Positions 12,499 to 50,766 of a stretch of DNA of 64,000 bases are shown here, piece after piece (positions within the stretch are counted from its first letter, which is position 1; each line of letters starts with the position of its first letter). The position numbers were made by a program, and so were the translations under genes. The stretch lies in NCBI RefSeq assembly GCF_041886205.1, contig NZ_CP169029.1; one strand, 5' to 3'. This DNA comes from Escherichia coli. GTDB lineage: Bacteria; Pseudomonadota; Gammaproteobacteria; Enterobacterales; Enterobacteriaceae. Below the pieces are notes generated by a model. It ran no database searches and was not told the DNA's origin. It worked only from the letters and a program-made list of their open reading frames with translations.

Positions 12499-12832
12499 TT
12501 ACCTTAACCTACTCATACGAAGCGGACGAGGATAAAATCCTATCATTTTCCGTTCGCTTCATTATTTTATTTTCTTTCCAATGCCCATTCAAATTAAAAA
12601 TATAACTCTGCCATAACTTCCTGAACACAGATGTAATTACATTGCCACCTCTCATACTTTTAAAAACGATCCATATGACAAGTCGTCCTATTGGGGCGTG
12701 ATAGATGTATTAATTTCCAAATATGCAAACATTCTGATACAGTCCCAAAAAGAAAATAATTACCAACCCAGATAATCAGCAAATAAATTAATGACAGTTG
12801 AATTATAATCAACACGAATACAAGAGATTAAC

Positions 12833-14683
12833 ATGGCAACAATAATCCCAACAATCAGTAGCTGCAACGATAAAATTACTGCCGGAGAGAAAAGGCTGGC
12901 AAGAATTCTGGAAAGAGGACTAGGCGAAGAGTGCTGCTGTTGGTATGACATTCCCACGGGTGATAAGCATCTTCACCCAGATTTTATGATACTTTCGCCA
13001 GAAAAAGGCATTATTTTTCTCGAGGTAAAAGATTGGTTTATTACAAAAATAAAAAAAGCCAACAAGTCTAATGTGTGGTATGAGACACAAAATGGCATTC
13101 AATCTTTAAAGAATCCGATAGAACAAGTTAGGCGATATGCTTTCGAAGCTGTAAACCAGTTAAAAAAAGACCCCCTATTGCGCCAACAGGATGATCGTTA
13201 CAATGGCAATCTTCTTTTCCCCTATGGATATGGCGTCTACTTTAGTAATATTACACGAGAAGCATTAAATAATAAATTTACTCAAGAAGAGCTGCTCGGG
13301 ATCTTCCCATCAGATCTCATCATCTGCAAAGACGAACTAAATGAATTCATGTCAAAAGAGGATGTTTCATCTAAAATACATTCGTTAATTAAATATGACT
13401 TCAAATGTCATGCTACACAAGAACAGTTGAACAGGATTAGATGGCACTTATACCCCGATGTCAGAATAGAAAGGGAAAAGAGAAGTAAAAACCGTGATGA
13501 ATTGAGTGTCGATGCACCAACCATCATTTCTATCCTGGATACTCAACAGGAACAACTTGCCAGGAGTATGAGAGATGGCCACCGAATCATTCATGGTGTT
13601 GCAGGTTCAGGGAAGACATTGATCCTCTATCATCGCTGTCAGGAATTAGCGAAAAAAAATGACAGCGAAAAGCCAATACTTGTCATTTGCTACAATATTA
13701 CTTTAGCCAAAAAACTTCGGTCGATGTTCATCAATCATCCCTTTGCAGAGAAAATAAAGGTTAAAAATTTTCATGCATGGTGTTTCCAACAAATTAAAGA
13801 AAACAAGATCACCATTCCAGAAGGGGATAATATTTTTGAAAATATGGAGCAAGCGTTGACTGATGGTTTCAACACAGGAAAAATAAAACCAGAACAATAC
13901 AGCGCTGTATTAATTGATGAAGGACATGATTTTAAGCCCGAATGGTTAAAAATCCTTGCAAAAATGACTGACTCTCAGGACGAGAATTTGCTATTCCTTT
14001 ATGATGATGCTCAGTCAATTTACCAAAAAAAGAAAGCATTAGACTTTACACTGTCCAGCGTAGATATTAAAGCGACAGGGCGCACAACTATTCTTAATAT
14101 AAATTATAGAAACACACAGCAAATCCTACACTTTGCCAGTTGCATTGCATTTAATTATCTTAATAGCCATATCGATAGTTCTTTAACCTATCATAAACCT
14201 GCTGCGGGAGGAATGAATGGCGATTATCCCAACCTTGAACATTTCGACACACAGGACGAAGAAATAGCAAGAGCAGTCAAATGGATTACAGAGCAAAATG
14301 AACAAGGGATTCCGTGGTCTGAAATTGCTATACTAAGTCCATCAACTCATACCCTTTCTAACTCTCTAAGTTCTGTACTTGAATCGAAAAACATCCCCTT
14401 TAATCTTATTGTAAGCTCTGCAGATAAAAAATCCTGGACGCCAGAACAAGAGCGTGTTTCTGTGATGCCATTACCCAGCAGCAAAGGGCTTGAGTTTCAC
14501 TCAGTTGTCATTATTGACGCAGCGAGAACACGGGATAATAGCGATGATTTGAGTGAGGATATAAAGAGACTCTATGTAGGTTTTACCCGAGCACGTTGCA
14601 ATCTCTTGGTAACCTTGCACGGTGAAGGTGCGTTAAATGAGCATCTACTAAAAACCTATGAGCAAAGCCCACAATATATGTAA
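12833..14683 (+). CDS. NERD-domain nuclease fused to SF1 (UvrD-like) helicase; Nhi-like candidate anti-phage protein
   Basis: 616 aa; N-terminal NERD-like region with PD...(E)VK core (HPDFMIL ... IIFLEVKDW); Walker A GVAGSGKT, Walker B VLIDEGHDF, SF1 motif V/VI-like LPSSKGLEFHSVVII and LYVGFTRARCNLLV; AT-rich; occupies the slot that holds mrr-hsdRMS in K-12. Confidence 0.75.
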   Translation: MATIIPTISSCNDKITAGEKRLARILERGLGEECCCWYDIPTGDKHLHPDFMILSPEKGIIFLEVKDWFITKIKKANKSNVWYETQNGIQSLKNPIEQVRRYAFEAVNQLKKDPLLRQQDDRYNGNLLFPYGYGVYFSNITREALNNKFTQEELLGIFPSDLIICKDELNEFMSKEDVSSKIHSLIKYDFKCHATQEQLNRIRWHLYPDVRIEREKRSKNRDELSVDAPTIISILDTQQEQLARSMRDGHRIIHGVAGSGKTLILYHRCQELAKKNDSEKPILVICYNITLAKKLRSMFINHPFAEKIKVKNFHAWCFQQIKENKITIPEGDNIFENMEQALTDGFNTGKIKPEQYSAVLIDEGHDFKPEWLKILAKMTDSQDENLLFLYDDAQSIYQKKKALDFTLSSVDIKATGRTTILNINYRNTQQILHFASCIAFNYLNSHIDSSLTYHKPAAGGMNGDYPNLEHFDTQDEEIARAVKWITEQNEQGIPWSEIAILSPSTHTLSNSLSSVLESKNIPFNLIVSSADKKSWTPEQERVSVMPLPSSKGLEFHSVVIIDAARTRDNSDDLSEDIKRLYVGFTRARCNLLVTLHGEGALNEHLLKTYEQSPQYM

Positions 14684-14827
14684 AAATGATAAATGATCTC
14701 CATAACGCCCGGTAACGCGGTACCGGGCGAAATGAATGCATATCTAAGATATTAGTCACGCCTGATAGCCGCTACCAAAAACACCATCATCTCCCTCGCA
14801 TCTTTGCGGTGATAAAATCGTACCATT

Positions 14828-15121
14828 TTGCTGTTAAATTCCAGCGCGTTAGCCGCTGGAATTAACAAGATCAGACTTCCGGCAACGAAGAGCCAGTTAT
14901 TACAAAAATTACTGGCAAAAGAGATAAAAAGCATTGTTGACAACACATCGAAATATCCTGACTGGAGTAAACACGATGATATTAAAGCGAAACTGAAAGT
15001 TGAACTTATTCTGCTTCTACACAAGCATAAGTTCCCGTCAGTAGCGAATGATGATGTTTATATGGGTGTGCTGGCACAGGCAGAGAGTTTTAAAGAACAT
15101 CATATGAGTCCTATAAATTAA
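14828..15121 (+). pseudogene. Orphan ORF fragment without ATG start, possible relic of a displaced restriction cassette
   Basis: 97-codon frame beginning at TTG with no convincing RBS; reads like the C-terminal tail of a larger protein; located between the NERD-helicase gene and symE. Confidence 0.3.
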
Positions 15122-15299
15122 TCATGAAGGCTGGATACACTTTGTTATCCGGCCATTGTGAATTAACGTTAATTTTTCTTCCAAATCTTTCCAGTAACGC
15201 TTTTATTATTTTCTATTTTTAGCTGGACTTTCCCTGTATTTACTGATGATATGTCCAGGTATTTAGCGCGGTGCGGATGTGCGCCAACACACCCGCACC

Positions 15300-15376
15300 A
15301 CTCATCACAATCACTATTTTCAAGGAATAGCAGTTATGACTGACACGCATTTTATTGCACAACCGTTCGAAGCAGA
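15300..15376 (-). ncRNA. symR: Expected position of SymR antisense sRNA (type I antitoxin) overlapping the symE RBS and start
   Basis: Placement inferred from the known symE/symR arrangement; boundaries not determinable from sequence alone. Confidence 0.35.
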
Positions 15377-15677
15377 AGTCTCCCCGGCAAATAACCGTCA
15401 ATTAACCGTGAGTTATGCGAGCCGCTACCCGGATTACAGCCGTATTCCCGCCATCACCCTGAAAGGTCAGTGGCTGGAAGCCGCCGGTTTTGCCACCGGC
15501 ACGGCGGTAGATGTCAAAGTAATGGAAGGCTGTATTGTCCTCACCGCCCAACAACCCGCCGCCGAAGAGAGCGAACTGATGCAGTCGCTGCGCCAGGTGT
15601 GCAAACTGTCGGCGCGTAAACAAAAGCAGGTGCAGGATTTTATTGGGGTGATTGCCGGTAAACAGAAAGTCGCCTGA
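15336..15677 (+). CDS. symE: SOS-induced toxin SymE (AbrB/MazE-like fold endoribonuclease)
   Basis: 113 aa from ATG 15336 with AAGGAA SD; sequence [25 protein letters not shown] ... matches remembered SymE (YjiW). Confidence 0.8.
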
Positions 15678-15684
15678 TAAATTG

Positions 15685-15716
15685 ACCCGGTAGCGCCAGT
15701 GCTACCGGGTATTATT
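15685..15716. terminator. Bidirectional hairpin between convergent symE and GmrSD-like gene
   Basis: acccggtagc / gccagt / gctaccgggt followed by attatt; lies between stop codons 15677 and 15724. Confidence 0.6.
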
Positions 15717-15723
15717 CGCCACG

Positions 15724-17817
15724 TTATACCAACGCGCTCTCCATCTGTTTTTCAAATGCCTGACGAATTAATCCCATAATGTAAGGAAGTTGTGCGAGGT
15801 CGCTGAAACCAATTTCCACATCACCATTACCCCAGCGCCCAATATTTGTCACATCTTTGGCAATACCTTTCGGATCGACCAGTTCATGAAACTGCATATT
15901 AAGCGACAATCGCAGTCGGCTTTTTTGCGGCACAACATCAACAAAATTCGTTTCAGCTTTAAACGCAATATACAGCTTTAAAACTTCCTGCGTGATCCCT
16001 GCGTCCAGGCGCATAACTTCATCGCGAAGATGATCGAATAACACCCGGCTATGCGAACCATCAGCAAGAAAAGGATAATCACTCAGGCTGTAACTGGTTT
16101 TGTTTTCTGGCTGCCCCCGATAAACAGCTAAAACCTCTTCAGAAAGAGAAGGCGCTTGCCAGACCTGAACCGCGAGATCGGCCAGACGATCGGCTCGGGC
16201 GTGAATGGCGGCTTCATCCCATTTTTCGCACTGTCCAAGACCGATATTCAAATAAAGCGGGCTATGTTTAAAGCCATCTTCAATATCGCGTTTTTCCGCG
16301 AAAGGTCTGTCACTGTAGCGGGAGTTATAGCGCGTTAAAGTGAGATTCCCCAACGTATGTAACAGTTCTTTATGCACACGCTGCCAGTCGCTTCCCAGCT
16401 CTTCACGCCATTTAGCCGACAGATTTTCGTTCTGCGGCATAATGTGCTCAATCGTAAACTCTTCCACGCGCTCTCTGCGTTTATCGTTTTCCAGTCGTCG
16501 TAACCAGTAGCTGCGGCTGCGGAAGTTATAGAGATCGCGCACTTTTAATTCCCGTTTAAATTCATCATCGTTGGGGAAACGACGATATGAAGGCAGGTTC
16601 ATAAAATGTACCTGAATACTTTCCAGATATTTTTCTTTATTAATGACCTTATAAAAAGTGGCAAACGTCTTGTTAAGAGAATTCGTCGGAATCGCACATA
16701 CTGCACGGCGGAAAACATAAGATTCAATTAAACGAATTATGCTCAGGAAATCTTCGTGAGACAAATCGTCATTTTTATAGTCATGATAAAGCGCCAGTAA
16801 GAAAGGATACGCCACATCAACCTTTAACTCGCGCAAATCCTGAAAAGCCGTAGCAAGCGATTTGTCACTTTCTTTTCCCAATGCCATTGCACAGTAATAC
16901 TCCGCGTAGATATGAATATCTTCAACCAGCCGATCTACGCCTTTTTCAGCAACACTCTGGCTGCGGGCATGGAGTTTAAATGCCTCATAGACTTCATCTG
17001 TCCGAGGGATCTCCCCCGTTTTTACCGTCAGATAATGACGCATAAAACTGTCAAAATATTCGCTGTAACCTTGCTGACCAAAGGCGACTTCCATTGGACG
17101 CCAGTGATCTTCATACAACCGGGTTTGATGCTCTGGTTCGAGACCCATCAGAATAAAATTGCGCACCAGATCGGCCTGACTTAACGCCTTACCGGTGGAG
17201 TTCATACTTTCAAAAATCAGTTGCGGATTATCCTGACCACGATTAAGCGCCACATCGACAATTAATAACTTTGCTAACCCTCGACATAAGGGAATCAAGT
17301 CATCCCCGAGTTTGGCAATTTGCTCATCAAAGAAAGTAAAGTTTTCCATTATTCGATGGGAATAGTTTTCTGGCATTGGTCTTTGTTTTATTAACGCCAG
17401 CAAACTGTCTTTATCAGTCTCGGTCAGCAGTAATTTAAAACCTTTCTCGCCGGACTCATAAGGATTGAGCAAATAATAATTACGCAATTTCATTGCCGAA
17501 AAGCCATCAAAAACTTCGTCTTCGCCAAGATGGCGCGATAAAGCCTCAATCAGCAACATTGCGGTCGTCAGCCGCTGCTGACCATCAATGACCAGCAACG
17601 GAGAAATACCAGAAACCTGATACAACCCCTGCTCAATATAAACAACCGAACCGATAAAATGCGCTGATATATCGTCACGCTTTCCGGCACGAATGATGTC
17701 GTCCCAAAGTTGCCGACATTGTTGCCCGGTCCATGAATAGGTGCGTTGATAAATGGGAATAACAAACTGCTGCGAACGTTTTAAAAAATCGAGTAGGCGG
17801 GCTTCTGTAGCTTTCAT
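15724..17817 (-). CDS. Type IV modification-dependent restriction endonuclease, GmrSD family (DUF262 + DUF1524)
   Basis: 697 aa; N-terminal DUF262/ParB-like NTPase motifs (IPIYQRTYSW, IDGQQRLTT); C-terminal DUF1524 His-Me finger motifs (EHIMPQ, HTLGNLTLT); sits where mcrBC lies in K-12. Confidence 0.75.
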   Translation of the reverse strand: MKATEARLLDFLKRSQQFVIPIYQRTYSWTGQQCRQLWDDIIRAGKRDDISAHFIGSVVYIEQGLYQVSGISPLLVIDGQQRLTTAMLLIEALSRHLGEDEVFDGFSAMKLRNYYLLNPYESGEKGFKLLLTETDKDSLLALIKQRPMPENYSHRIMENFTFFDEQIAKLGDDLIPLCRGLAKLLIVDVALNRGQDNPQLIFESMNSTGKALSQADLVRNFILMGLEPEHQTRLYEDHWRPMEVAFGQQGYSEYFDSFMRHYLTVKTGEIPRTDEVYEAFKLHARSQSVAEKGVDRLVEDIHIYAEYYCAMALGKESDKSLATAFQDLRELKVDVAYPFLLALYHDYKNDDLSHEDFLSIIRLIESYVFRRAVCAIPTNSLNKTFATFYKVINKEKYLESIQVHFMNLPSYRRFPNDDEFKRELKVRDLYNFRSRSYWLRRLENDKRRERVEEFTIEHIMPQNENLSAKWREELGSDWQRVHKELLHTLGNLTLTRYNSRYSDRPFAEKRDIEDGFKHSPLYLNIGLGQCEKWDEAAIHARADRLADLAVQVWQAPSLSEEVLAVYRGQPENKTSYSLSDYPFLADGSHSRVLFDHLRDEVMRLDAGITQEVLKLYIAFKAETNFVDVVPQKSRLRLSLNMQFHELVDPKGIAKDVTNIGRWGNGDVEIGFSDLAQLPYIMGLIRQAFEKQMESALV

Positions 17818-18254
17818 TCTGACGTCTTTCCGTGAAGCGATGATTTCGCAATAATAACCGCTTCCTTGTGGAGGTTATAGAGAAATCCTGTTTATCCGCG
17901 ATGAATTGCCCCCTCACTCCACATCCTCCCTACGTAACCCAATATCCCTCAACCGCTCATCACTCATCTGCTGTAACACTCGTCGGGTCTGCATTTGCCG
18001 CCGCCAACGCCTCACCGCCTGCCAGAGTTGCACAAGTCTGATAAACGGCGTTTTGGCTTTGTTTTCGTGAAATTCCATCTGCTGCCTCCTCATCTTTCAG
18101 AGGCTTCATCATCCGCCTTCTGGCAGTTCACAATACAGATGCAAATATTAGTTTTATTTAACATACAGACAGGTTAAAACAGCATCTGCATCCGGTTTTT
18201 TAGCCTCATCTGTACCGGTTTTTCTTTCTGTATGGGCCAAATAAGGAATACAGC

Positions 18255-31127: not shown

Positions 31128-31337
31128 GTAATTTAACGAATTTAACTTTTCAGTACATCACGTAAAATAATTAAAACATCCTTTTTCTTTGGAGGTGTAC
31201 AGCCACCGCCGTTATTAATTCTGGTTTAGCAACTTTACGGCTAATTCATTATTTCTGGTCATATTATAGTCAGGATCGCATTATATCTCCGTGCTAGAAA
31301 AAACAAGTTTAATTCTGTTTTTTCACGGAAGGTCACT

Positions 31338-34300
31338 ATGGCTTCGACAAATGCGCATCAAATAAAAAATAATGATCAAAACTCTTTATGTGGTCTGGGT
31401 GACAAAATACGCCGCCTGACCGCCGGAGTTTGTTTATTTACACAAATTTTTTTCCCCGTCATGGCGACGGCACAAAATGTGGTACATGCTAAATCTCAGA
31501 CGACAGTTTCATCTGCGCCCCCTCTAATAGAAAATAATACTGTGCCTTACACGCTTGGTGCGCTGGAATCAGCGCAAAGCGTTGCTGATCGATTCGGTGT
31601 TTCACTGGAGGAGCTTCGTCGTCTTAATCAGTTCCGTACTTTTGCTCGCGGCTTTGATAACGTGCGCCAGGGTGAAGAACTGGATGTTCCGGCAACAACC
31701 TCGCAGAAAAGCCATGAGCAACAAAATGCCGTACCGCCTGCGAATGGCGAAAACACGCTGGAGAATCAAATAGCCAGCACCTCGCAGCGAGTTGGCACTC
31801 TGCTTTCACAAGATATGAATAGTGAGCAGGCCAGCGGCATGGCGCGTGGTTGGGCGTCTTCAGAAGCCTCAGGCGCGATGACTGATTGGTTAAATAACTT
31901 TGGCACTGCGAGAATCTCTCTGGGTGTGGATGAAGATTTTAGCCTGAAAAATTCGCAATTCGACTTCCTGCATCCGTGGTATGACACACCCGATTATCTC
32001 CTCTTCAGCCAGCATACCCTTCACCGAACAGACGACCGTACCCAGATCAACACCGGTTTGGGCTGGCGTCATTTCACCCCCAGCTGGATGTCAGGCATCA
32101 ACCTGTTTTTTGACCACGACCTGAGCCGCTATCACTCCCGCGCGGGGCTTGGCGCAGAATACTGGCGTGATTATCTCAAGTTAAGCAGCAACGCTTATAT
32201 CGGCCTGACCGGCTGGCGTAGCGCACCAGAATTGGATAATGACTTCGAAGCCCGCCCGGCCAACGGTTGGGATTTACGCGCGGAAGGCTGGTTACCTGCC
32301 TGGCCACAACTGGGTGGAAAACTGGTCTATGAACAATACTACGGCGATGAAGTGGCGCTGTTTGACAAGAATGATCGCCAAAGTAATCCCCATGCTATTA
32401 CCGCGGGCCTCAACTATACCCCCTTCCCGCTTCTGACTCTCAGTGCGGAACAGCGTCAGGGGAAACAAGGTGAAAATGACACACGTTTTGCCGTTGATCT
32501 GACCTGGCAACCCAGCAGTTCAATGCAGAAACAGCTTAACCCGGACGAAGTGGCCGGACGGCGCAGTCTGGTCGGTAGTCGTTATGACCTGATTGATCGC
32601 AACAACAACATCGTTCTGGAATACCGCAAGAAAGAGCTGATTCGCCTGAGTCTGCTGGATCCGGTGAAAGGGAAGTCTGGAGAAATAAAACCGCTGGTTT
32701 CCTCGCTACAGACCAAATATGCCCTGAAAGGCTATAACATCGAAGCCGCTGCGCTGGAAGCTGCCGGAGGTAAAGTCAGCACTTCTGGAAAAGATATCAC
32801 GGTCACGCTGCCAGGTTACCGCTTCACTAACACCCCAGAAACCGATAATACATGGTCGATAGACGTTACCGCCGAGGATGTAAAAGGTAACCTGTCACAT
32901 CATGAACAAAGCATGGTAGTCATTCAGGCTCCGACATTAAGCCAGAAAGATTCTCTGTTATCCGTTAATCCGCTAACCGTGGCTGCAGATAAAAAATCGA
33001 CGACCACATTGACCGTTACTGCACACGATTCCGACGGAACCCCGGTGCCGGGGCTTGCGCTGCAAACCCGCAGTGAAGGCGTTCAGGACATCACCCTGTC
33101 TGACTGGACAGATAACGGTGATGGTAGTTACACACAGATGCTGACCGCCGGAACGACATCAGGTTCAGTAACACTGACGCCGCAAATTAACGGTGAGAGT
33201 GCGGTAAAAGAATCTATCGTCGTTAATATCGTCCCTGTTGTCTCATCCCGCGACCATTCATCAATAACAATTGATAACGTATCGTATTATGCCGGAGACG
33301 ACATCAAGGTTAGGGTGGAGCTGAAAGACGATAGCAATCAACCGGTTGCATATCAAAAAGAGGAATTGGTAAAAGCCGTTACTGTCGAAAACAGCAAACC
33401 TGGAGCCACGATTGTCTGGCACGAAGAGCTGCCGGGGGTTTATACCGCGAATTATCCGGCCCATAAGCAAGGGACAGCACTAAGGGCACAACTTAGCCTT
33501 CACAACTGGAATGCTCCACTGCAATCGCATATTTATAACATTGAGGCAAACCAGAATAAGGCTCGCGTCGCCACATTATCAGCGACGAATAATGACGTTT
33601 ACGCTGATAAAAAGACATTTAATACCCTCACTATCAACGTCACTGATGAGAGTGATAATCCCCTGACAAATCATCAGGTCACCTTTAAGAATGAAAAAGG
33701 AAGCGCGGAATTTGTCGAACCGCCGCAGCAAAATACGGATGCATATGGTGTTGCCACAATCAACATGGTAAGTCAGGTTGCGGAAGAAAATACGATTAGC
33801 GCCACGCTGCCAAATGGTTTCTCACAACGGATAATTGCGAAATTTGTTAGCGATTCGAGTACGCCAAAATTCAAACAACTGGTTGCCGATCCAGATACCA
33901 TTATTGCTGGCAACAGCCAGGGCAGCACTCTGACCGCCACCGTCACAGACTTTCATAACAACCCATTAAAAGATATGAAAGTGAATTTTGTGGCACCTGG
34001 TGGCTCGCAACTGGACAACACGACCGCCACAACAGACCAGTACGGTATTGTGCGGGTGCATCTGACCAGTTCAAAAGCTGGTAGCTATTCCGTAGATGCC
34101 TCGCTTGAGGCGGATAAAAATATTCACCAGTCGGTCACGATCACCGTGGTCCCAAACAGGGAACAATCGGTAATGACCTTGAATGCCGGGTCGGGCAGTG
34201 CGGTCGCTAACAATACAAATACCGTTACCCTGACTGCCAGTGTGAAAGATGTTTATGGACACCCATTGCCGGATGAGGATGTGAAATTTACCTTGCCAGC

Positions 34301-36578
34301 CTCCATGACCGGGAACTTCACGCTAAGTAGTGAAACCGCCCGCACCGATGCAAACGGCGATGCCATGGTCACATTGCGAGGCACAAAAGCGGGTGAGTTT
34401 ACAGTTACGGCGACGCTGACAAGAAATAATACCATTGCTCATCAGCAAGTTTCTTTTATTGGGGATACAAACAGTGCGCAGCTCCAGCCGCTGACTGCCT
34501 CATTAAATACCATTGTTGCGGGTAACAGTACGGGGAGTACCCTGACGGCAACGATCCTGGACGCTTACCAAAATCCGCTTAAAGACCAGCTGGTCACTTT
34601 CCAGAGTAACGATGTCACTCTAAGCGGAACAGAAGTCACCACCAATACGCTGGGTCAGGCGACGGTAACAATGACCAGCAATATTGCCGGACAACATAAC
34701 GTCGTGGTGAGCCGGAAAGCACAAGCCTCCGATAATAAAACGTTTAGTTTATCAGTGCTCCCGGATGAAAGTTCGGCGAAGGTAATAAGTATAACCGGAG
34801 CCGAAAAAACGATAACGGTTGGCGAAAACATCACGCTACGGATACTCGTCCAGGACGCGTTTAACAATGTAATAGCGGGTCAACGTGTCAGATTAAGTGC
34901 GCAGCCAACAGCTCACATTACGATAGGCGATACGGCTTACACCGATAATAACGGTTATGCGTACGTTCACCTTATTAGCACCCAGTCTGGGGTTTATCAG
35001 GTGACGGCAACGCTGGACAATAACAGTAGTAGTAAGGTTGACGTGAATGTGGCAAATGGCAAACTCGAGTTAACATCATCGAAGCCAGAAACCACGGTCC
35101 ATAACAGTGAGGGTATTACGCTTACCGCAACGGCGAGAAATGCGCGGGATGAATTGATGCCTGGGCAAATTATCACCTTTAGCGTAACGCCTGAAGGTGC
35201 AACGCTAAGCAATACAGGGGAAGTCCTTACTGACCAGTCTGGTCAGGCCAAAGTGACGCTGACCAGTGACAAAGTGAATGTCTATACCGTTACGGCCACA
35301 ATGGGCAAAGATGTTCCCGTTCAGAGCCAGGTAACGGTTGCGGTTAAGGCAGATGCTAAAACGGCACATGTTGTAAGCGTCGTGGCCTCTCCTGACACCA
35401 TAACCGCCGACGGCGTTGATAGCAGCACCGTCACGTCACGAGTAGAAGATGATTACGGATTCCCGGTTGAAGGTGTCGATGTTAGTTATGCCTTAGACAC
35501 CAAAGGTCGCCCGGTTGTTAATATTCCAACTACGCGTACCGATCAATCCGGGCAAGTCACGGCGACAATAACCAGTACATTGGCAGAAACCTTAACAGTC
35601 AATGTGCAAGTTCCTGGTACAGCCAACCAATCCGCAGCTATTACCTTGATTGCCGGCACGGCGGATGAAAGTAAGTCAATTTTGAAATCCGACGTTGGCA
35701 CTCTGATGGCTGACTACCAGCATAGCGCGAAACTTACGCTAACATTGCAAGACAAGTACGGTAACCCGATAGTGACGTCTGATCATCTGGAATTTGTCCA
35801 GTCAGGTCCCTTCGTGAACTTTCTCAAGTTGAGCGATATTGATTACAGCCAAAGAAATTATGGCGAGTACACCGTGACTGTCACTGGCGGAAAAGAGGGA
35901 ACAGCGACTCTCATTCCCATGCTGAACGGGGTTCATCAGGCAAACTTAAGCGTATCGCTGAATCTCATCCGCTCGATAAAAGAAATGTCCGGTCATGTCA
36001 CTGCAAACAACCATACCTTCTCCACGGCTAAATTCCCGAGCGAAGGTTTTGCAGGAGCGTATTACACACTCAACAATGATAACTTTGAAGCGGGTAAAAC
36101 CGTTGATGATTATATGTTTTCAAGTTCACAGAGTTGGGTGTCTGTCGATGCGTCAGGTAAGGTTTCTTTCACAAATATCGGCGATCAAACGTCAGTCACA
36201 ATAAGCGCTGTTCCCCGACAAGGAGGTACAACCTACCAGACCTTAATTAAGCTGAAAGGCTGGTGGGTGAATAATGGAAATCAAACCAATATCTGGCTAA
36301 CTGCCAATGCGCTCTGTCATGCGAAAAATGATGGATATACTCTTCCTGGCATCACACATTTGACGTCTGGCGAAAACAAACGCACGCAGGGATCGCTATA
36401 TGGTGAATGGGGGAACGTTGCAGCGTTTTCCAGTAATTCGCCATTTACACCAGGTGCTTACTGGACAAATGAATCTGATGATTACAATAGGCACTACTAT
36501 GTGCAGATGCTAACGGGTATGACCGGAAGCGACGCTGATTCCAGCCCCCAACTGACCGCCTGCCGTAAATCACTTTAA
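31338..36578 (+). CDS. Inverse autotransporter adhesin (intimin/invasin family) with LysM, beta-barrel and many Big domains
   Basis: 1746 aa; SD GGAAGG; extended N-terminal signal region; LysM-like segment (SVADRFGVSLEELRRLNQF); intimin/invasin-type beta-barrel (GLGWRHFTPSWMSGINLFFDHDLSRYHSRAGLGAEYW); at least 12 Ig-like repeats (e.g. TLTATVTDFHNNPLKDMKVNF); divergent C-terminal domain with Cys residues. Confidence 0.8.
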   Translation: MASTNAHQIKNNDQNSLCGLGDKIRRLTAGVCLFTQIFFPVMATAQNVVHAKSQTTVSSAPPLIENNTVPYTLGALESAQSVADRFGVSLEELRRLNQFRTFARGFDNVRQGEELDVPATTSQKSHEQQNAVPPANGENTLENQIASTSQRVGTLLSQDMNSEQASGMARGWASSEASGAMTDWLNNFGTARISLGVDEDFSLKNSQFDFLHPWYDTPDYLLFSQHTLHRTDDRTQINTGLGWRHFTPSWMSGINLFFDHDLSRYHSRAGLGAEYWRDYLKLSSNAYIGLTGWRSAPELDNDFEARPANGWDLRAEGWLPAWPQLGGKLVYEQYYGDEVALFDKNDRQSNPHAITAGLNYTPFPLLTLSAEQRQGKQGENDTRFAVDLTWQPSSSMQKQLNPDEVAGRRSLVGSRYDLIDRNNNIVLEYRKKELIRLSLLDPVKGKSGEIKPLVSSLQTKYALKGYNIEAAALEAAGGKVSTSGKDITVTLPGYRFTNTPETDNTWSIDVTAEDVKGNLSHHEQSMVVIQAPTLSQKDSLLSVNPLTVAADKKSTTTLTVTAHDSDGTPVPGLALQTRSEGVQDITLSDWTDNGDGSYTQMLTAGTTSGSVTLTPQINGESAVKESIVVNIVPVVSSRDHSSITIDNVSYYAGDDIKVRVELKDDSNQPVAYQKEELVKAVTVENSKPGATIVWHEELPGVYTANYPAHKQGTALRAQLSLHNWNAPLQSHIYNIEANQNKARVATLSATNNDVYADKKTFNTLTINVTDESDNPLTNHQVTFKNEKGSAEFVEPPQQNTDAYGVATINMVSQVAEENTISATLPNGFSQRIIAKFVSDSSTPKFKQLVADPDTIIAGNSQGSTLTATVTDFHNNPLKDMKVNFVAPGGSQLDNTTATTDQYGIVRVHLTSSKAGSYSVDASLEADKNIHQSVTITVVPNREQSVMTLNAGSGSAVANNTNTVTLTASVKDVYGHPLPDEDVKFTLPASMTGNFTLSSETARTDANGDAMVTLRGTKAGEFTVTATLTRNNTIAHQQVSFIGDTNSAQLQPLTASLNTIVAGNSTGSTLTATILDAYQNPLKDQLVTFQSNDVTLSGTEVTTNTLGQATVTMTSNIAGQHNVVVSRKAQASDNKTFSLSVLPDESSAKVISITGAEKTITVGENITLRILVQDAFNNVIAGQRVRLSAQPTAHITIGDTAYTDNNGYAYVHLISTQSGVYQVTATLDNNSSSKVDVNVANGKLELTSSKPETTVHNSEGITLTATARNARDELMPGQIITFSVTPEGATLSNTGEVLTDQSGQAKVTLTSDKVNVYTVTATMGKDVPVQSQVTVAVKADAKTAHVVSVVASPDTITADGVDSSTVTSRVEDDYGFPVEGVDVSYALDTKGRPVVNIPTTRTDQSGQVTATITSTLAETLTVNVQVPGTANQSAAITLIAGTADESKSILKSDVGTLMADYQHSAKLTLTLQDKYGNPIVTSDHLEFVQSGPFVNFLKLSDIDYSQRNYGEYTVTVTGGKEGTATLIPMLNGVHQANLSVSLNLIRSIKEMSGHVTANNHTFSTAKFPSEGFAGAYYTLNNDNFEAGKTVDDYMFSSSQSWVSVDASGKVSFTNIGDQTSVTISAVPRQGGTTYQTLIKLKGWWVNNGNQTNIWLTANALCHAKNDGYTLPGITHLTSGENKRTQGSLYGEWGNVAAFSSNSPFTPGAYWTNESDDYNRHYYVQMLTGMTGSDADSSPQLTACRKSL

Positions 36579-36596
36579 TTTCTGCAGTTGTTATTA

Positions 36597-36626
36597 AAGG
36601 ATACCCTTGTGCGAGGGTATCCTTTC
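36597..36626. terminator. Perfect 12-bp inverted repeat between convergent adhesin gene and kptA
   Basis: aaaggataccct / tgtgcg / agggtatccttt. Confidence 0.6.
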
Positions 36627-36701
36627 CGACTGATAACAAACGCTACATTGCCTAATGCGCTGCGCTTATCTGGCCTATATAATCCCTGCAATATATTGAA
36701 T

Positions 36702-37286
36702 TTATTGTTTTTGTGGCCCAGCCGACATGAACGGCCACTCAAGAAACTCAACAGCAACCGTTGATGTCAGCCAGACCCCGTTTTCCGCTTGCCAGAAAGG
36801 GATGCCTCGTTTCGCCATTTCCTGTGCTTTGACGGTTAAGATAACCGGCGATCCGTGTCTTGCTCCCACTTTGCGTGCCGTTGCTTCATCAGCAGAGAGA
36901 TGTACGTAATGACGCTCCCCTGCAATCAGCCCCTGTTTTTTTATCTCGTCAAGGAAACGGCTTGCCGTACCGTGGTAGAGAAACTGTGGCGGTGTTTTTT
37001 CGGCAAAGGAAATGGCGACCTGCGAAGTCGAATGCCCCTGAACCGCGCGGATGCACCTACCATCACTGGAATAACTAAAACGCTTTTTATCGCTGGTGGC
37101 AACCACAGTATCCAGCAATGCACGGGTTAACCGCTTGCCCGCTTTTTGGGCACAGAGTATAAGCTTATCGATATCCGCCCATCCTTCACGGTCAAGTACG
37201 ATACCAATCGCCTCCGGTTTGTGTCGGAGGACAAAACTTAAAAACTTGCTCGTATCCGCCAGCTCTTTTTCGTTGTACTTTGCCAT
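36702..37286 (-). CDS. kptA: RNA 2'-phosphotransferase (Tpt1 family)
   Basis: Starts [25 protein letters not shown] (Tpt1 N-terminal motif); the ORF-track frame extends 34 codons further upstream, so the true start is uncertain. Confidence 0.78.
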
Positions 37287-37523
37287 CTCGTTTTCGTCCC
37301 TGGATTTTCTGTTTTTATTTACTGATGTCATTGTCACTTGGTTTATGAATTTTCTGCAACTCAATCCTGCGCAGAGCCTTTTCCACACAGCGTAATTTTT
37401 CCGCTATGCAAAAAACGCATAGCCAGAAACATACTTGCATTTTCCCCATACCCACATGGCTGATAAGGTTTTTCCGCTCCAGGAATTTTCCTGGCTCAAG
37501 CAACACACAAACACAAAAAAACA

Positions 37524-38219
37524 ATGGGGATTGTTATGACACAACAAGGGGATGCTGTAGCCGGGGAGCTGGCGACAGAAAAAGTGGGCATTAAAGGGTA
37601 TCTGGCTTTTTTTCTCACCATAATCTTTTTTTCCGGTGTTTTTTCCGGGACAGACAGTTGGTGGCGCGTTTTTGATTTTTCCGTTCTGAACGGATCGTTT
37701 GGGCAACTGCCTGGTGCGAATGGAGCCACCACCTCATTTCGCGGGGCGGGTGGCGCGGGGGCTAAAGATGGCTTTCTCTTTGCGCTGGAGCTGGCACCGT
37801 CAGTCATTCTCTCTCTGGGGATTATTTCAATTACCGATGGTCTTGGTGGATTACGCGCCGCGCAGCAGTTAATGACACCTGTGCTAAAACCGTTGTTGGG
37901 CATTCCAGGGATCTGCTCGCTGGCGCTGATCGCTAACCTGCAAAACACGGATGCCGCCGCCGGTATGACCAAAGAGCTGGCGCAGGAAGGTGAAATTACC
38001 GAACGCGATAAAGTGATTTTCGCCGCATATCAAACCAGCGGTAGCGCCATCATCACCAACTACTTCTCTTCCGGCGTCGCGGTGTTTGCCTTTCTGGGCA
38101 CGTCCGTAATCGTACCTTTAGCCGTCATCCTGGTGTTTAAATTTGTCGGAGCCAACATTTTGCGCGTCTGGCTTAACTTCGAAGAACGTCGCAACCCAAC
38201 GCAAGGAGCGCAAGCATGA
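37524..38219 (+). CDS. yjiH: Inner-membrane protein YjiH (nucleoside-recognition-domain-like)
   Basis: 231-aa ORF (alternative ATG at 37536); hydrophobic; 4-bp overlap with yjiG. Confidence 0.72.
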   Translation: MGIVMTQQGDAVAGELATEKVGIKGYLAFFLTIIFFSGVFSGTDSWWRVFDFSVLNGSFGQLPGANGATTSFRGAGGAGAKDGFLFALELAPSVILSLGIISITDGLGGLRAAQQLMTPVLKPLLGIPGICSLALIANLQNTDAAAGMTKELAQEGEITERDKVIFAAYQTSGSAIITNYFSSGVAVFAFLGTSVIVPLAVILVFKFVGANILRVWLNFEERRNPTQGAQA

Positions 38220-38677
38220 CAACTCAGGTCCGCAAAAATGTCATGGATATGTTTATCGATGGTGCGCGCCGTGGCTTTACTATCGCCACGACCAACCTGC
38301 TGCCAAACGTGGTGATGGCGTTTGTCATCATTCAGGCGCTGAAAATTACCGGCCTGCTCGACTGGGTGGGGCATATCTGTGAACCCGTAATGGCGCTGTG
38401 GGGATTACCCGGTGAAGCGGCAACCGTCCTTTTAGCCGCATTAATGAGTATGGGCGGCGCAGTCGGTGTTGCCGCCAGTCTGGCGACCGCCGGCGCATTA
38501 ACCGGTCACGATGTCACCGTTTTACTGCCCGCGATGTATTTAATGGGCAACCCGGTGCAAAATGTCGGTCGCTGCCTGGGGACAGCCGAAGTGAATGCCA
38601 AATATTACCCGCATATCATTACGGTCTGCGTGATTAACGCATTGCTGTCGATCTGGGTTATGCAGCTTATTGTTTAA
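38216..38677 (+). CDS. yjiG: Inner-membrane protein YjiG
   Basis: 153 aa; ATGA overlap with yjiH; synteny with iadA. Confidence 0.72.
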   Translation: MTTQVRKNVMDMFIDGARRGFTIATTNLLPNVVMAFVIIQALKITGLLDWVGHICEPVMALWGLPGEAATVLLAALMSMGGAVGVAASLATAGALTGHDVTVLLPAMYLMGNPVQNVGRCLGTAEVNAKYYPHIITVCVINALLSIWVMQLIV

Positions 38678-38689
38678 CAAGGAGTTACC

Positions 38690-39862
38690 ATGATTGATTA
38701 TACCGCAGCCGGTTTTACCCTGCTGCAGGGAGCGCATTTGTATGCGCCGGAAGATCGGGGAATTTGCGATGTCCTCGTCGCTAACGGCAAAATTATCGCC
38801 GTTGCCAGCAATATCCCTTCTGACATTGTACCGGACTGCACGGTTGTCGATCTCAGCGGGCAGATCCTCTGTCCTGGTTTTATTGATCAACACGTCCATT
38901 TGATTGGTGGTGGCGGTGAAGCAGGTCCCACGACGCGCACGCCAGAAGTGGCGCTAAGTCGCCTGACGGAAGCGGGCGTCACGTCAGTGGTTGGTCTGCT
39001 GGGCACCGACTCTATCTCTCGCCACCCGGAATCCCTGCTCGCCAAGACCCGTGCGCTCAATGAAGAAGGCATCAGCGCCTGGATGCTGACCGGCGCTTAT
39101 CATGTCCCTTCCCGCACCATTACAGGTTCCGTGGAAAAAGACGTGGCGATTATCGATCGTGTGATTGGCGTGAAATGCGCCATCTCTGATCACCGTTCTG
39201 CCGCACCGGACGTTTATCACCTGGCTAATATGGCGGCGGAATCCCGCGTTGGCGGTTTGCTCGGCGGTAAACCTGGCGTCACCGTGTTCCACATGGGCGA
39301 CAGCAAAAAGGCGTTACAGCCTGTCTATGACCTGCTGGAAAACTGCGATGTGCCGATCAGCAAGTTGCTGCCGACCCACGTTAACCGCAACGTTCCGTTG
39401 TTTGAGCAGGCGCTGGAGTTCGCGCGCAAAGGCGGCACTATCGATATCACCAGCAGCATTGACGAACCGGTCGCCCCTGCCGAAGGTATTGCGCGCGCCG
39501 TTCAGGCGGGTATTCCGCTGGCACGCGTCACCCTCAGCTCCGACGGCAACGGTAGCCAGCCGTTCTTCGATGACGAAGGGAATTTAACCCATATCGGTGT
39601 TGCCGGTTTTGAAACGTTGCTGGAAACCGTGCAGGTGCTGGTCAAAGACTATGATTTCAGTATCAGCGATGCCCTGCGCCCGCTCACCAGTAGCGTAGCC
39701 GGTTTCCTTAACCTGACCGGGAAAGGCGAAATTCTGCCAGGCAATGATGCTGACTTGCTGGTCATGACGCCAGAACTGCGCATTGAGCAGGTATACGCTC
39801 GCGGCAAACTGATGGTCAAAGACGGCAAAGCCTGCGTGAAAGGAACGTTTGAAACGGCTTAA
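38690..39862 (+). CDS. iadA: Isoaspartyl dipeptidase (amidohydrolase superfamily)
   Basis: 390 aa; metal-binding HxH motif (GFIDQHVHLIGGGGE); SD AAGGAG. Confidence 0.85.
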   Translation: MIDYTAAGFTLLQGAHLYAPEDRGICDVLVANGKIIAVASNIPSDIVPDCTVVDLSGQILCPGFIDQHVHLIGGGGEAGPTTRTPEVALSRLTEAGVTSVVGLLGTDSISRHPESLLAKTRALNEEGISAWMLTGAYHVPSRTITGSVEKDVAIIDRVIGVKCAISDHRSAAPDVYHLANMAAESRVGGLLGGKPGVTVFHMGDSKKALQPVYDLLENCDVPISKLLPTHVNRNVPLFEQALEFARKGGTIDITSSIDEPVAPAEGIARAVQAGIPLARVTLSSDGNGSQPFFDDEGNLTHIGVAGFETLLETVQVLVKDYDFSISDALRPLTSSVAGFLNLTGKGEILPGNDADLLVMTPELRIEQVYARGKLMVKDGKACVKGTFETA

Positions 39863-39926
39863 ACGGTTGTCAGCCGCCCGAATGGACGTAGAATGCCCGC
39901 AAGGGCGGCTGACAGAGTAAAACGTA

Positions 39927-40763
39927 ATGGATGACTGTGGTGCGATTTTGCATAATATTGAAACCAAATGGCTTTATGATTTTCTGACCCTGGAAAAATG
40001 CCGCAATTTTTCCCAGGCGGCAGTCAGTCGCAACGTCTCGCAACCGGCATTCAGCCGCCGCATCCGTGCGCTGGAACAGGCGATTGGTGTTGAATTGTTT
40101 AACCGCCAGGTAACGCCGCTGCAACTCTCAGAACAAGGGAAAATCTTCCATTCGCAGATCCGCCATCTGTTGCAACAGTTAGAGAGCAATCTGGCAGAGC
40201 TGCGTGGCGGCAGCGATTACGCGCAACGAAAAATCAAGATAGCCGCTGCACACTCTCTTTCCCTCGGGCTGTTACCGTCCATTATCAGCCAGATGCCGCC
40301 GCTCTTTACCTGGGCAATTGAAGCTATTGATGTCGATGAAGCGGTCGATAAACTGCGTGAAGGGCAAAGTGACTGTATTTTTTCCTTTCACGACGAAGAT
40401 TTGCTGGAAGCGCCGTTTGACCACATTCGCTTATTTGAATCTCAATTGTTCCCTGTCTGCGCCAGTGACGAACACGGAGAAGCACTTTTTAACCTCGCGC
40501 AGCCACACTTTCCGTTACTGAATTACAGCCGCAACTCCTACATGGGGCGATTGATTAATCGCACCCTGACGCGCCACAGTGAGTTAAGTTTCAGCACCTT
40601 TTTTGTCTCTTCGATGAGCGAGCTTTTAAAGCAGGTTGCCCTCGACGGCTGTGGGATTGCCTGGCTGCCGGAGTACGCCATCCAACAAGAAATTCGCAGC
40701 GGGAAGCTCGTTGTACTGAATCGGGACGAACTGGTGATCCCGATTCTGGCCTATGCATACTGA
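39927..40763 (+). CDS. hypT: LysR-family hypochlorite-responsive regulator, C-terminally truncated allele
   Basis: LysR wHTH (LEKCRNFSQAAVSRNVSQPAFSRRIRALE); ORF ends at TGA 40761-40763 and the same frame continues for 24 more sense codons ([24 protein letters not shown]) before the next stop; 278 + 1 + 24 = 303, the length I recall for HypT. Confidence 0.75.
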   Translation: MDDCGAILHNIETKWLYDFLTLEKCRNFSQAAVSRNVSQPAFSRRIRALEQAIGVELFNRQVTPLQLSEQGKIFHSQIRHLLQQLESNLAELRGGSDYAQRKIKIAAAHSLSLGLLPSIISQMPPLFTWAIEAIDVDEAVDKLREGQSDCIFSFHDEDLLEAPFDHIRLFESQLFPVCASDEHGEALFNLAQPHFPLLNYSRNSYMGRLINRTLTRHSELSFSTFFVSSMSELLKQVALDGCGIAWLPEYAIQQEIRSGKLVVLNRDELVIPILAYAY

Positions 40764-40830
40764 ATGAATACCCGCATGAATCCAGTTGCCGAACGCTTCT
40801 GGCGTGAACTGCGCGAGCTGGAGATTGTAC

Positions 40831-41223
40831 TTAGCTGACATTCTCCAGCGTCGCACTACGCCAACCGCCATTATCCCAGACCAGATCAAACGTTAGCGGT
40901 TCATCGTCGTGGTACAGCATTATCTCAAGGCTGATCGCCAGCGTGTGACTGTACGCTTCTTTCAGATTGACCTGCAACGCCGCAATCCGTGGCTCATGAA
41001 ATAACAGTGCAGAACGCAGCTGACGGCAATACCAGCTCTGGAGATGTTTGTCGCTCTGGTTATGCACTTGCCACTCGGGCATGCCTGAAACAAGTAATGA
41101 CGGTAATGCCGAAAGAGGAGAATTAAAAAGAGTGAGGAGATCGCTGCATACCGATTTACGCAGCAATGACGTTTTATTGCCTGAAATTTTAGGTAAAACA
41201 GCCTGAAGTGATTGGCGCATCAT
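40831..41223 (-). CDS. iraD: Anti-adaptor protein stabilising RpoS
   Basis: 130 aa from [11 protein letters not shown]; synteny between hypT and yjiC. Confidence 0.78.
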
Positions 41224-41894
41224 TTTGCGCACTCCTGACGTTTAGCAACATATGCGGCTTGCCCTGAACACCGGGCACCACTGTATTGATGCTCATTTTC
41301 CATAGCCATTCCCTTTTGTTCATTACATCCATGTCAGTCTGAGACAGGCCTGAATCCTGTCAGCAAAGTATAAAACCTTACTTGCCTATGAATATCTACT
41401 GACTTTTCAGGAAAAAAGTCATGATTTGATAAAAATCATCAAACTCAAAAAAAAACCGCTAGTATATTCTGAATATTCCGAATAGTTACGTAGATGAAAA
41501 TACTTGTCACCGCCGCTACTTAATTCCGGTTGGAAATTATTTATTTCCGCATAATCATCTATGTATTATTTGAAACAATTAGTTTGTAAATAATATAAAT
41601 TGATAACATATCAAATACATCAAAAATACCATTCACAGGCATTATTAATATAGACCTCAATATAGCAACATCAAATTCCAATTAGTAATAAGATATGCTT
41701 TTAAATTGCATGCAAATAATTTTAAATGAGCGTTTTTTGATACTTTAGAGTGTTTCCTACCATTTAATATCACTGTGTAGAGTTGATATCACTACAACAG
41801 AAACATGCATGTCATTTGTTTACTTCTCTTTTACTACAGAAAAATTTATCTATTTTTCTAAACATCAGTGAAATACTCATAAAAGGTAACTATT

Positions 41895-42725
41895 ATGTCT
41901 ATGCCATTAAGCAATGCCGCTAATAACCAATTCTATATAAATAATCACTTCCTTCATCATCCAAAAGTCGACAATGAGTTAACACGTAAATATGAACGTG
42001 CACGCCTGGATACGGAAAATATCTATCTTCTGCCTCTTACTCGTGGCAATAACCATAATTACGATGGAAAAAGCGTTGTCGAAATTAGAAAACTTGATAT
42101 TAGTAAAGAGTCCTGGCCATTTAATTATGTGACAGAAACATGCAGAGAATCCGATGGTATTACAACAACAGGTCGTATGCTCTATCGAAACTTGCGAATT
42201 ACCTCAGCTTTAGACGAAATATATGGTGGTATATGTAAAAAGGCGCATGCTGCCACAGAGTTAGCAGAAGGATTACGGCTAAATTTATTTATGAAGAGCC
42301 CTTTCGATCCTGTTGAGGACTATACAGTTCATGAAATAACATTAGGCCCTGGTTGCAATGTTCCTGGTTATGCCGGAACCACGATAGGATATATTTCAAC
42401 CCTTCCAGCTTCTCAGGCAAAAAGATGGACCAATGAGCAGCCAAGGATTGATATCTATATTGATCAGATAATGACGGTAACAGGGGTAGCAAATTCTTCC
42501 GGATTCGCCCTTGCCGTATTACTTAATGCTAATATTGAGTTGGGTAATGACCCAATAATTGGTATAGAAGCCTATCCCGGTACCGCGGAGATCCATGCAA
42601 AAATGGGATATAAAGTTATCCCGGGTGATGAAAATGCACCACTCAAACGTATGACTCTGCAACCGTCATCTCTTCCAGAACTGTTTGAATTAAAAAATGG
42701 TGAATGGAATTATATTGGTAAATAA
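41895..42725 (+). CDS. yjiC: Uncharacterised protein YjiC
   Basis: 276-aa ORF in AT-rich DNA preceded by about 650 bp of AT-rich non-coding sequence; synteny. Confidence 0.65.
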   Translation: MSMPLSNAANNQFYINNHFLHHPKVDNELTRKYERARLDTENIYLLPLTRGNNHNYDGKSVVEIRKLDISKESWPFNYVTETCRESDGITTTGRMLYRNLRITSALDEIYGGICKKAHAATELAEGLRLNLFMKSPFDPVEDYTVHEITLGPGCNVPGYAGTTIGYISTLPASQAKRWTNEQPRIDIYIDQIMTVTGVANSSGFALAVLLNANIELGNDPIIGIEAYPGTAEIHAKMGYKVIPGDENAPLKRMTLQPSSLPELFELKNGEWNYIGK

Positions 42726-46757: not shown

Positions 46758-46972
46758 CACAAGAAATCAACTCTATTGCTGGTTGATGCAAATGACAACA
46801 AAGGAGAAGCGGCGGTTAGTAATCGGGGGATGTGACATTCATCGCAATAATGGTTGACCAATTTACATAACGTGTCGCCCAAAATAACAATGGATTAACC
46901 TACTCCCCCATTGCATAAGTTGTGACCGACACAACAAAACTGATGTTGTTGCAAAGATTGCTATTTAGTTTT

Positions 46973-46987
46973 GGTATAAAAGGTATA
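46973..46987 (+). promoter_or_regulatory. Tandem GGTATA repeats, NanR-operator-like, about 50 bp upstream of nanM
   Basis: GGTATAaaaGGTATA; NanR is known to bind GGTATA repeats. Confidence 0.4.
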
Positions 46988-47036
46988 CAGGCACATGGTG
47001 CGACATTTGAATTCCAGCGATCAGGAGTAATTCACA

Positions 47037-49846: not shown

Positions 49847-49992
49847 AGAGAATGTCCTTATACGTTCTCAGAACAAGCAGCAAAAAAACAAATGAGATCA
49901 AAGTAATATATCTTCACTTGCAGGCTTGAACAGCAGAAAATTTGCGAGCATGATCGCAATTATTTCACTGCCAGGGAGGTAATGACTCCAAC

Positions 49993-50496
49993 TTATTGAT
50001 AGTGTTTTATGTTCAGATAATGCCCGATGACTTTGTCATGCAGCTCCACCGATTTTGAGAACGACAGCGACTTCCGTCCCAGCCGTGCCAGGTGCTGTCT
50101 CAGATTCAGGTTATGCCGCTCAATTCGCTGCGTATATCGCTTGCTGATTACGTGCAGCTTTCCCTTCAGGCGGGATTCATACAGCGGCCAGCCATCCGTC
50201 ATCCATATCACCACGTCAAAGGGTGACAGCAGGCTCATAAGACGCCCCAGCGTCGCCATAGTGCGTTCACCGAATACGTGCGCAACAACCGTCTTCCGGA
50301 GCCTGTCATACGCGTAAAACAGCCAGCGCTGGCGCGATTTAGCCCCGACATAGCCCCACTGTTCGTCCATTTCCGCGCAGACGATGACGTCACTGCCCGG
50401 CTGTATGCGCGAGGTTACCGACTGCGGCCTGAGTTTTTTAAATGGCGGAAAATCGTGTTGAGGCCAACGCCCATAATGCGGGCGGTTGCCCGGCAT
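49993..50496 (-). CDS. insB: IS1 transposase InsB
   Basis: 167-aa ORF matching IS1 InsB ([19 protein letters not shown]...). Confidence 0.9.
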
Positions 50497-50690
50497 CCAA
50501 CGCCATTCATGGCCATATCAATGATTTTCTGGTGCGTACCGGGTTGAGAAGCGGTGTAAGTGAACTGCAGTTGCCATGTTTTACGGCAGTGAGAGCAGAG
50601 ATAGCGCTGATGTCCGGCGGTGCTTTTGCCGTTACGCACCACCCCGTCAGTAGCTGAACAGGAGGGACAGCTGATAGAAACAGAAGCCAC
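50415..50690 (-). CDS. insA: IS1 protein InsA
   Basis: 91 aa, zinc-finger [37 protein letters not shown]; overlaps insB as in IS1 (frameshift fusion InsAB'). Confidence 0.9.
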
Positions 50691-50766
50691 TGGAGCACCT
50701 CAAAAACACCATCATACACTAAATCAGTAAGTTGGCAGCATCACCCAGCAAACGAACCTGGATGAT

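Follow-up and report, generated by a model that had tools for sequence, protein, structure and literature searches.

The iatD locus between yjiJ and kptA in an Escherichia coli chromosome

The gene and its assignment

The DNA analysed here is a stretch of 64,000 nucleotides from the Escherichia coli contig NZ_CP169029.1 (assembly GCF_041886205.1; hereafter the window), in which a single uninterrupted open reading frame (ORF) at 31338..36578 on the plus strand, starting with ATG and devoid of internal stops, encodes a protein of 1746 amino acids (aa). With high confidence, this ORF represents iatD, an accessory E. coli gene for a type Ve (inverse autotransporter) adhesin, in an intact allelic form. 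An earlier note, made from the nucleotide sequence of the window, had placed a large adhesin ORF between yjiJ and kptA, with a span (31128-36700) that comprises the gene together with both of its intergenic spacers; the window copy is indeed in frame over all 1746 codons and carries no frameshift. The left neighbour, yjiJ (29949..31127, plus strand), codes for a major facilitator superfamily transporter, and the right neighbour, the convergent kptA (36702..37286, minus strand), for an RNA 2'-phosphotransferase that passes its NCBIfam cut-off (427 bits versus 233).

Comparison of the locus by megablast with 5426 complete E. coli genomes retrieved the same arrangement annotated as 'iatD: inverse autotransporter IatD'. 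Strain ET201 is 100% identical to the window over positions 29900-37500, so that the very same DNA is already annotated as iatD in that strain. The gene has been defined as EcSMS35_4876 of strain SMS-3-5, with a length of 5,241 bp (Goh et al. 2019, mSphere, PMC6714894). The window gene and that of SMS-3-5 align over 1746 codons without a gap, at 97.60% nucleotide and 97.31% amino acid identity; the codon changes comprise 76 synonymous and 47 non-synonymous ones, and the corresponding 47 amino acid substitutions are spread along the protein. The two proteins are equal in length, colinear and alike in domain plan, and their genes occupy the same chromosomal site, with the same neighbours on either side in SMS-3-5, ET201 and O157:H7. 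To count as an IatD ortholog, a protein was required to be >75% identical across 80% of the alignment (Goh et al. 2019, PMC6714894), a range into which the window protein falls over its full length, although its 97.3% identity lies slightly outside the '>98%' given in that study for seven genomes. When the full-length protein was used as a query, the best 120 clusters were all 1746 aa long, 97-98% identical and derived from E. coli or Shigella, and the named members among them were labelled IatD or inverse autotransporter; being near-identical entries from these two groups, they are uninformative on other genera.

We considered whether the gene might instead represent another named inverse autotransporter (IatC, YeeJ, intimin, FdeC or SinH). 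The highest-scoring NCBIfam model is the N-terminal model of IatC (NF040978), and the DNA encoding the LysM and barrel regions is ~77% identical to yeeJ. The yeeJ similarity ends after about one third of iatD, and no NCBIfam model passes for the protein: the IatC model reaches 1127 bits where its curated cut-off is 2400, intimin (NF033627) 360.9 bits where it is 1400, confined to the barrel region, and SinH 305 bits where it is 999, with YrIlm, Ilp and YchO also below their cut-offs. As NCBIfam gave no passing model, the assignment was made by comparing the gene directly with that of SMS-3-5. Since the paralogue models remain far below cut-off and the match to the SMS-3-5 protein (97.3%) extends over the full length, we conclude that the gene encodes IatD and not a paralogue, the probability of another named family member being close to nil.

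Consequently, this is not a new gene: iatD has a name and a published characterisation, RefSeq annotates it as a matter of routine, and a search of the literature on IatD returned Goh et al. 2019 (PMC6714894) as the sole relevant match. What is added here, namely the haplotype structure and its probable direction of change, the poly-C frameshift of O157:H7 and its frequency, the fold of the tip and the weakness of the LysM match, are refinements and not discoveries. The earlier note had asked whether the adhesin could be a common core gene known under some name and invariant at this site; it does bear a known name, but it is neither core nor invariant, its presence and absence among genomes being real.

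Distribution and the frameshifted allele of O157:H7

At a coverage of at least 80%, iatD is present in 638 of the 5426 complete E. coli genomes (11.8%). This agrees with the accessory status that the earlier note had proposed, the gene being absent from K-12-type genomes, and may be set beside the published frequencies of 6% among 126 genomes and 10% among strains of the ECOR collection (Goh et al. 2019, PMC6714894). The window allele itself is rare: among the complete genomes only ET201 carries it at 99% identity or above, and the remaining carriers do not exceed 97.7%.

In the O157:H7 strain NE1127, iatD is flagged as 'frameshifted'. The lesion can be traced to an interrupted C-tract, CGCCCCC, which lies at 31516..31522 (plus strand) in the window and is in frame there; its O157:H7 counterpart is an uninterrupted run of eight C residues (C8), a +1 insertion after which translation meets a stop at codon 67. 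Precisely this allele, as an 81-nt sequence, recurs in 284 complete genomes, and a few genomes contain 80- or 79-nt versions of it. Phase variation at the poly-C tract was considered and rejected, as the C8 allele is identical in all 284 genomes and the tract of the window is interrupted; such uniformity looks like a mutation fixed in a lineage. The words pseudogene, frameshift and O157 do not occur in the main text of Goh et al. 2019 (PMC6714894). The neighbouring kptA is likewise flagged as frameshifted in O157:H7 NE1127.

Domain organization of the protein

The protein begins with an extended signal region (aa 1-45; 31338..31472, plus strand) composed of basic residues (K23, R25 and R26), a hydrophobic stretch (L27-M42) and A43-T44-A45 preceding Q46; judged by eye from the translation, it would constitute a Sec signal peptide with a putative cleavage site. 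A LysM-like segment, presumably periplasmic, follows at aa ~70-118 (31545..31691, plus strand), where Pfam yields a partial match; a LysM domain was called in IatD by InterPro (Goh et al. 2019, PMC6714894). The inverse-autotransporter β-barrel translocator occupies aa 148-423 (31779..32606, plus strand) and is matched by Pfam IAT_beta (PF11924) with an E-value of 8.3e-108 over model positions 2-279 of 279. Barrels of known structure are recovered as well (invasin, PDB 4e1t, E = 1.1e-80; intimin, PDB 4e1s, E = 2.6e-66). The barrel is N-terminal to the passenger, which is the arrangement of type Ve autotransporters.

The passenger starts with an Ig-like stalk (aa 539-1541; 32952..35960, plus strand) in which nine Big_1/Invasin_D3 repeats were delineated with confidence, together with a weak, partial one (aa 641-713). 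The nine repeats score between E = 1e-28 and 1e-35 against a profile built from the IatD repeats themselves, and Pfam Big_1 and Invasin_D3 match the stalk with E-values down to 1.8e-19. As the repeats are just 13-43% identical to one another, a repeat search inside iatD did not find tandem repeats at the DNA level. The layout anticipated in the earlier note (signal region, LysM, barrel, Ig array and distinct tip) is upheld for the barrel, the Big_1 array and the tip by Pfam, PDB and fold comparisons, and is weaker than stated for LysM; the identities and order of the domains and the fold of the tip are results of computation.

This organization can be compared with that of several known adhesins. 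Yersinia invasin has a homologous barrel, and the last ~450 residues of IatD align with its domains D1-D5; IatD differs from it in having about twice as many Ig domains. Intimin (Eae) of enteropathogenic and enterohaemorrhagic E. coli has in common with IatD the plan of barrel, Ig-rod and lectin-like tip, preceded by a LysM segment that in IatD is weakly matched, whereas iatD lies outside the locus of enterocyte effacement, has no gene for a Tir partner nearby and encodes a far longer passenger. For the N-terminal third, the closest paralogues are YeeJ and IatC, two large E. coli inverse autotransporters that possess LysM and a lectin-like cap, the DNA similarity to yeeJ spanning gene nucleotides 199-1940. 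All three proteins promote biofilm formation when overexpressed (Goh et al. 2019, PMC6714894). They are encoded at different loci, the passengers of YeeJ and IatC differ in length (in SMS-3-5, 2359 and 2934 aa), and DNA similarity does not extend past the barrel and first Ig domains.

The C-terminal tip

The tip (aa ~1550-1746; 35985..36575, plus strand) consists of an invasin-D4-like Ig domain, matched by Pfam Invasin_D4, and a C-type-lectin-like domain. The last ~310 residues of IatD align with invasin D3-D5 (PDB 1cwv), including the position of Cys907. C1660 and C1742, which are the sole cysteines in the mature protein, occupy the places of the disulfide in the invasin tip, and in 25 diverse relatives conservation of both columns is 90% or more. 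At E <= 0.001, relatives of the tip form 324 representative clusters, of which the closest outside IatD is 46-52% identical. A model of the tip, computed with AlphaFold2 from an alignment of 25 of its relatives, reached a predicted local distance difference test (pLDDT) score of 90.2 and a predicted template modelling (pTM) score of 0.80. In a Foldseek search with this model, invasin (1cwv, E = 1.6e-20) and a C-terminal piece of intimin (1f00, E = 1.8e-13) rank first, followed by InvE, InvD and FdeC, and the Tir-binding module of intimin (2zqk_B, corresponding to D2-D3) superposes on it with a template modelling (TM) score of 0.69 and a root mean square deviation of 3.7 Å. As modelled, the lectin-like domain and the last Ig domain combine into one superdomain, and by analogy with invasin the tip is probably closed by a single C1660-C1742 disulfide. 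A search of ~100,000 species-representative genomes with a degenerate DNA pattern encoding the tip motif GEWGNVAAF gave 0 matches, although an exact pattern of this kind can miss variants; the result fits a restriction to E. coli and Shigella.

The kinship with invasin raises the question of whether IatD might be a receptor-specific host-cell adhesin or invasin, binding for instance integrins, with biofilm formation a side effect of overexpression. Invasin D4-D5 is the best match of the tip both in sequence and in fold, and the disulfide cysteines are conserved. Integrin binding by invasin involves Asp911. At exactly this column IatD has an Asn, which speaks against such a role, with an Asp (D1665) one residue away, which speaks for it; taken together, this neither supports nor excludes integrin binding. 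The tip is ~24% identical to that of invasin, and Goh et al. observed no binding to proteins of the extracellular matrix (ECM), and did not report on cell adhesion or invasion (PMC6714894). Furthermore, O157:H7 apparently does without IatD, since the gene is inactivated in the sampled strain NE1127 and the same allele occurs in 284 genomes. On balance, we consider a role as an invasin-like host-cell adhesin unlikely.

The alternative haplotype at ytiA-kptA

Comparison of the window with a K-12-type locus by blastn demonstrates that iatD is the right end of an alternative haplotype of ~10.6 kb, located at ytiA-kptA and comprising an espX6-like gene, yjiK, yjiJ and iatD. The left flank (20001-26167) is 95.6% identical to the K-12 type; it is followed by a pentapeptide-repeat region absent from the K-12 type (26168-29044, with the espX6-like gene of 35% GC), by yjiK and yjiJ (29045-31105), which are 80.2% identical, by iatD with its spacers (31106-36734), again absent, and by the right flank (36735-41991), which is 98.5% identical. 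The K-12-type genome has 12 bp between yjiJ and kptA, confirming what the earlier note had stated of their immediate neighbourhood in K-12, and the distance is 12-14 bp across all visible junctions (K-12 type, Escherichia sp. E1V33 and one metagenome-assembled genome (MAG)). The right junction of the haplotype lies inside the end of kptA, thereby creating a 10-aa C-terminal extension of its product (36702-36734, minus strand).

The alleles of yjiK and yjiJ within the block (29039..31127, plus strand) are divergent from those of K-12 (78.4% and 80.9% nucleotide identity, respectively) and 97-98% identical among iatD-positive strains. The block as a whole is carried by 571-638 complete E. coli genomes. 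Its flanks revealed neither terminal direct or inverted repeats in a repeat search nor mobility genes.

To assess the polarity of the exchange, one genome per species was scanned with a pattern derived from a YjiJ peptide that both alleles conserve, which yielded five loci. E. whittamii and Escherichia sp. E1V33 possess a K-12-type yjiJ, 92-94% identical to that of K-12 and ~81% to that of the window, and a MAG labelled Citrobacter has yjiK and yjiJ ~98% identical to K-12; kptA is directly beside yjiJ in E1V33 and in the Citrobacter-labelled MAG. Since the sampled sister lineages carry the K-12-type yjiJ, with kptA adjacent where the junction is visible, the K-12 arrangement looks ancestral for the genus. 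From these comparisons of sequence we propose, with moderate confidence, that the iatD block was brought in by homologous replacement from an unsampled donor.

The espX6-like pentapeptide-repeat gene (26501..28768, plus strand; 35% GC) contains internal tandem repeats, and its O157:H7 counterpart is annotated espX6, a type III secretion system effector. Two of its repeat arrays consist of 24-nt units in 7.9 copies (28486-28675) and 9-nt units in 18 copies (27997-28159). The gene product varies in length, from 755 aa in the window to 736 in ET201, 735 in O157:H7 and 657 in SMS-3-5, and the O157:H7 and SMS-3-5 proteins are 85-87% identical to that of the window.

One could go further and regard the espX6-like gene, the divergent yjiK and yjiJ alleles and iatD as a single host-interaction module acquired from an unsampled enterobacterial lineage, with the tip binding a specific host receptor and the fixed poly-C frameshift of O157:H7 being an adaptive loss and not neutral decay; such a scenario is speculative and, in our judgement, quite improbable. 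Independently of its origin, the finding that iatD and an EspX6-like effector gene sit together on a ~10.6-kb haplotype that is dimorphic, and that the O157:H7 copy of iatD is inactivated by a homopolymer frameshift, should be useful to those employing iatD as a marker or vaccine candidate.

Several GTDB species-representative Escherichia genomes yield only fragmentary matches to kptA beside yjiJ (locus positions 541-746, 969-1014 and 188-250), corresponding to one internal deletion, one 46-nt remnant and one 63-nt match, which suggests recurrent decay of kptA at the yjiJ junction.

Function and expression

Experimental data exist for the SMS-3-5 protein only, which reaches the cell surface after cloning, as detected with a specific antiserum, and which, when its expression is driven by isopropyl β-D-1-thiogalactopyranoside (IPTG) in a K-12 flu mutant, causes strong biofilm formation in both microtitre and flow-chamber assays; it conferred neither autoaggregation nor binding to ECM proteins (Goh et al. 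2019, PMC6714894). By analogy with intimin and invasin, the precursor would be exported by the Sec system, and its N-terminal, 12-stranded β-barrel (aa ~148-423) would insert into the outer membrane, while the short LysM-like segment would stay in the periplasm and possibly bind peptidoglycan. The C-terminal passenger would then thread out through the barrel and fold into a rod with some twelve Ig-like domains, holding the invasin/intimin-type tip, with its Ig and C-type-lectin-like domains and one disulfide, far from the cell surface.

Five points count against the picture of an imported, functional adhesin drawn here. The window allele differs by 47 substitutions from the protein that was studied experimentally, and biofilm formation by the latter was seen only when IPTG drove its overexpression in a K-12 host (Goh et al. 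2019, PMC6714894). The Pfam LysM match on the isolated N-terminus is sub-threshold (aa 79-99, E = 0.088, 21 of 43 model positions). As the GC content of iatD equals that of its surroundings (49%), composition gives no signal of foreign origin, and the direction of import rests on yjiJ stretches of just 160-176 nt in two Escherichia genomes from outside E. coli and on an exact-pattern scan, which can miss variants.

A further explanation is that iatD, albeit intact, is cryptic: transcriptionally silent in most conditions, for example through H-NS, decaying as in O157:H7 and contributing nothing in this strain. The upstream spacer (31128..31337, plus strand) is AT-rich, with 33% GC versus 49% in iatD and in the window as a whole. 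A GGAAGG that resembles a Shine-Dalgarno sequence (31327-31332) is found in it 6 nt upstream of the ATG, and no promoter could be defined there: a promoter scan of the spacer returned one weak match only (31142-31171), and the number of matches was not above that in shuffled sequences. The AT-richness of the spacer hints at possible silencing of the H-NS type, and given the 33%-GC spacer and the fact that overexpression was needed in the work of 2019, silencing in laboratory conditions is a reasonable guess. The frameshifted allele is found in 284 of about 638 carriers, and Goh et al. not only required IPTG overexpression but also failed to detect native IatB in SMS-3-5 (PMC6714894). Conversely, the frame of 1746 codons is intact in the window and in the other sampled non-O157 carriers (gene length 5241 bp), and the excess of synonymous over non-synonymous changes relative to SMS-3-5 (76/47), although a crude count, fits purifying selection. 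We thus regard a cryptic iatD as possible but somewhat doubtful, and retain the interpretation of the gene as that of an intact accessory adhesin.

The iatD-kptA spacer and other features of the window

Between the convergent iatD and kptA lies a hairpin without assigned strand (36598..36627), made of a perfect 12-bp stem and a 6-nt loop, AAAGGATACCCT-TGTGCG-AGGGTATCCTTT, and flanked by an outer stem in which 36588-36596 pairs with 36634-36642. The 131-nt iatD-kptA spacer folds better than each of 200 shuffled versions (200/200; z = -3.9). The hairpin is situated 19 nt past the stop codon of iatD and 74 nt from that of kptA, and is separated from kptA by a further element (36628..36714, no strand) that we take to resemble the repetitive extragenic palindromic (REP) consensus; this REP-like element is 76% identical to a sequence beside the rpn pseudogene at a K-12-type locus. 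The earlier note had described a perfect 12-bp hairpin shared with kptA: the stem is perfect as claimed, and its sharing as a terminator is less secure than stated. At 36598-36627 there is no U-run, and a terminator scan, whose total was not above that for shuffled sequences, made no call there; given this, and the REP-like element between the hairpin and kptA, a shared bidirectional terminator of iatD and kptA is no more than plausible. A search of Rfam with window positions 26000-38000 produced zero matches.

Elsewhere, uxuA runs almost straight into nanM (46900-47022): ~12.5 kb that contain gntP, the fimB-fimH type 1 fimbrial operon and nanC in SMS-3-5 and K-12 are absent from their usual place in both the window and ET201. 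Part of the value of the present locus lies in an intact, slightly divergent iatD allele, borne by a strain in which the usual site of the type 1 fimbrial operon lacks that operon. An IS1-like element is located at 49977-50745, after which the window continues to tRNA-Leu and the ahr region, without the ~10-kb island of type I restriction-modification and AbiE genes that ET201 has at this point. Since the ET201 island is absent, the strain of the window is a relative of ET201 distinct from it. Finally, positions 12500-17900 are only partly colinear with ET201, in which BrnT/BrnA, a restriction endonuclease and fragments of type I restriction-modification genes interrupted by IS1 are found; this part of the window appears to be a hypervariable 'immigration control' region of the hsd/mrr type.

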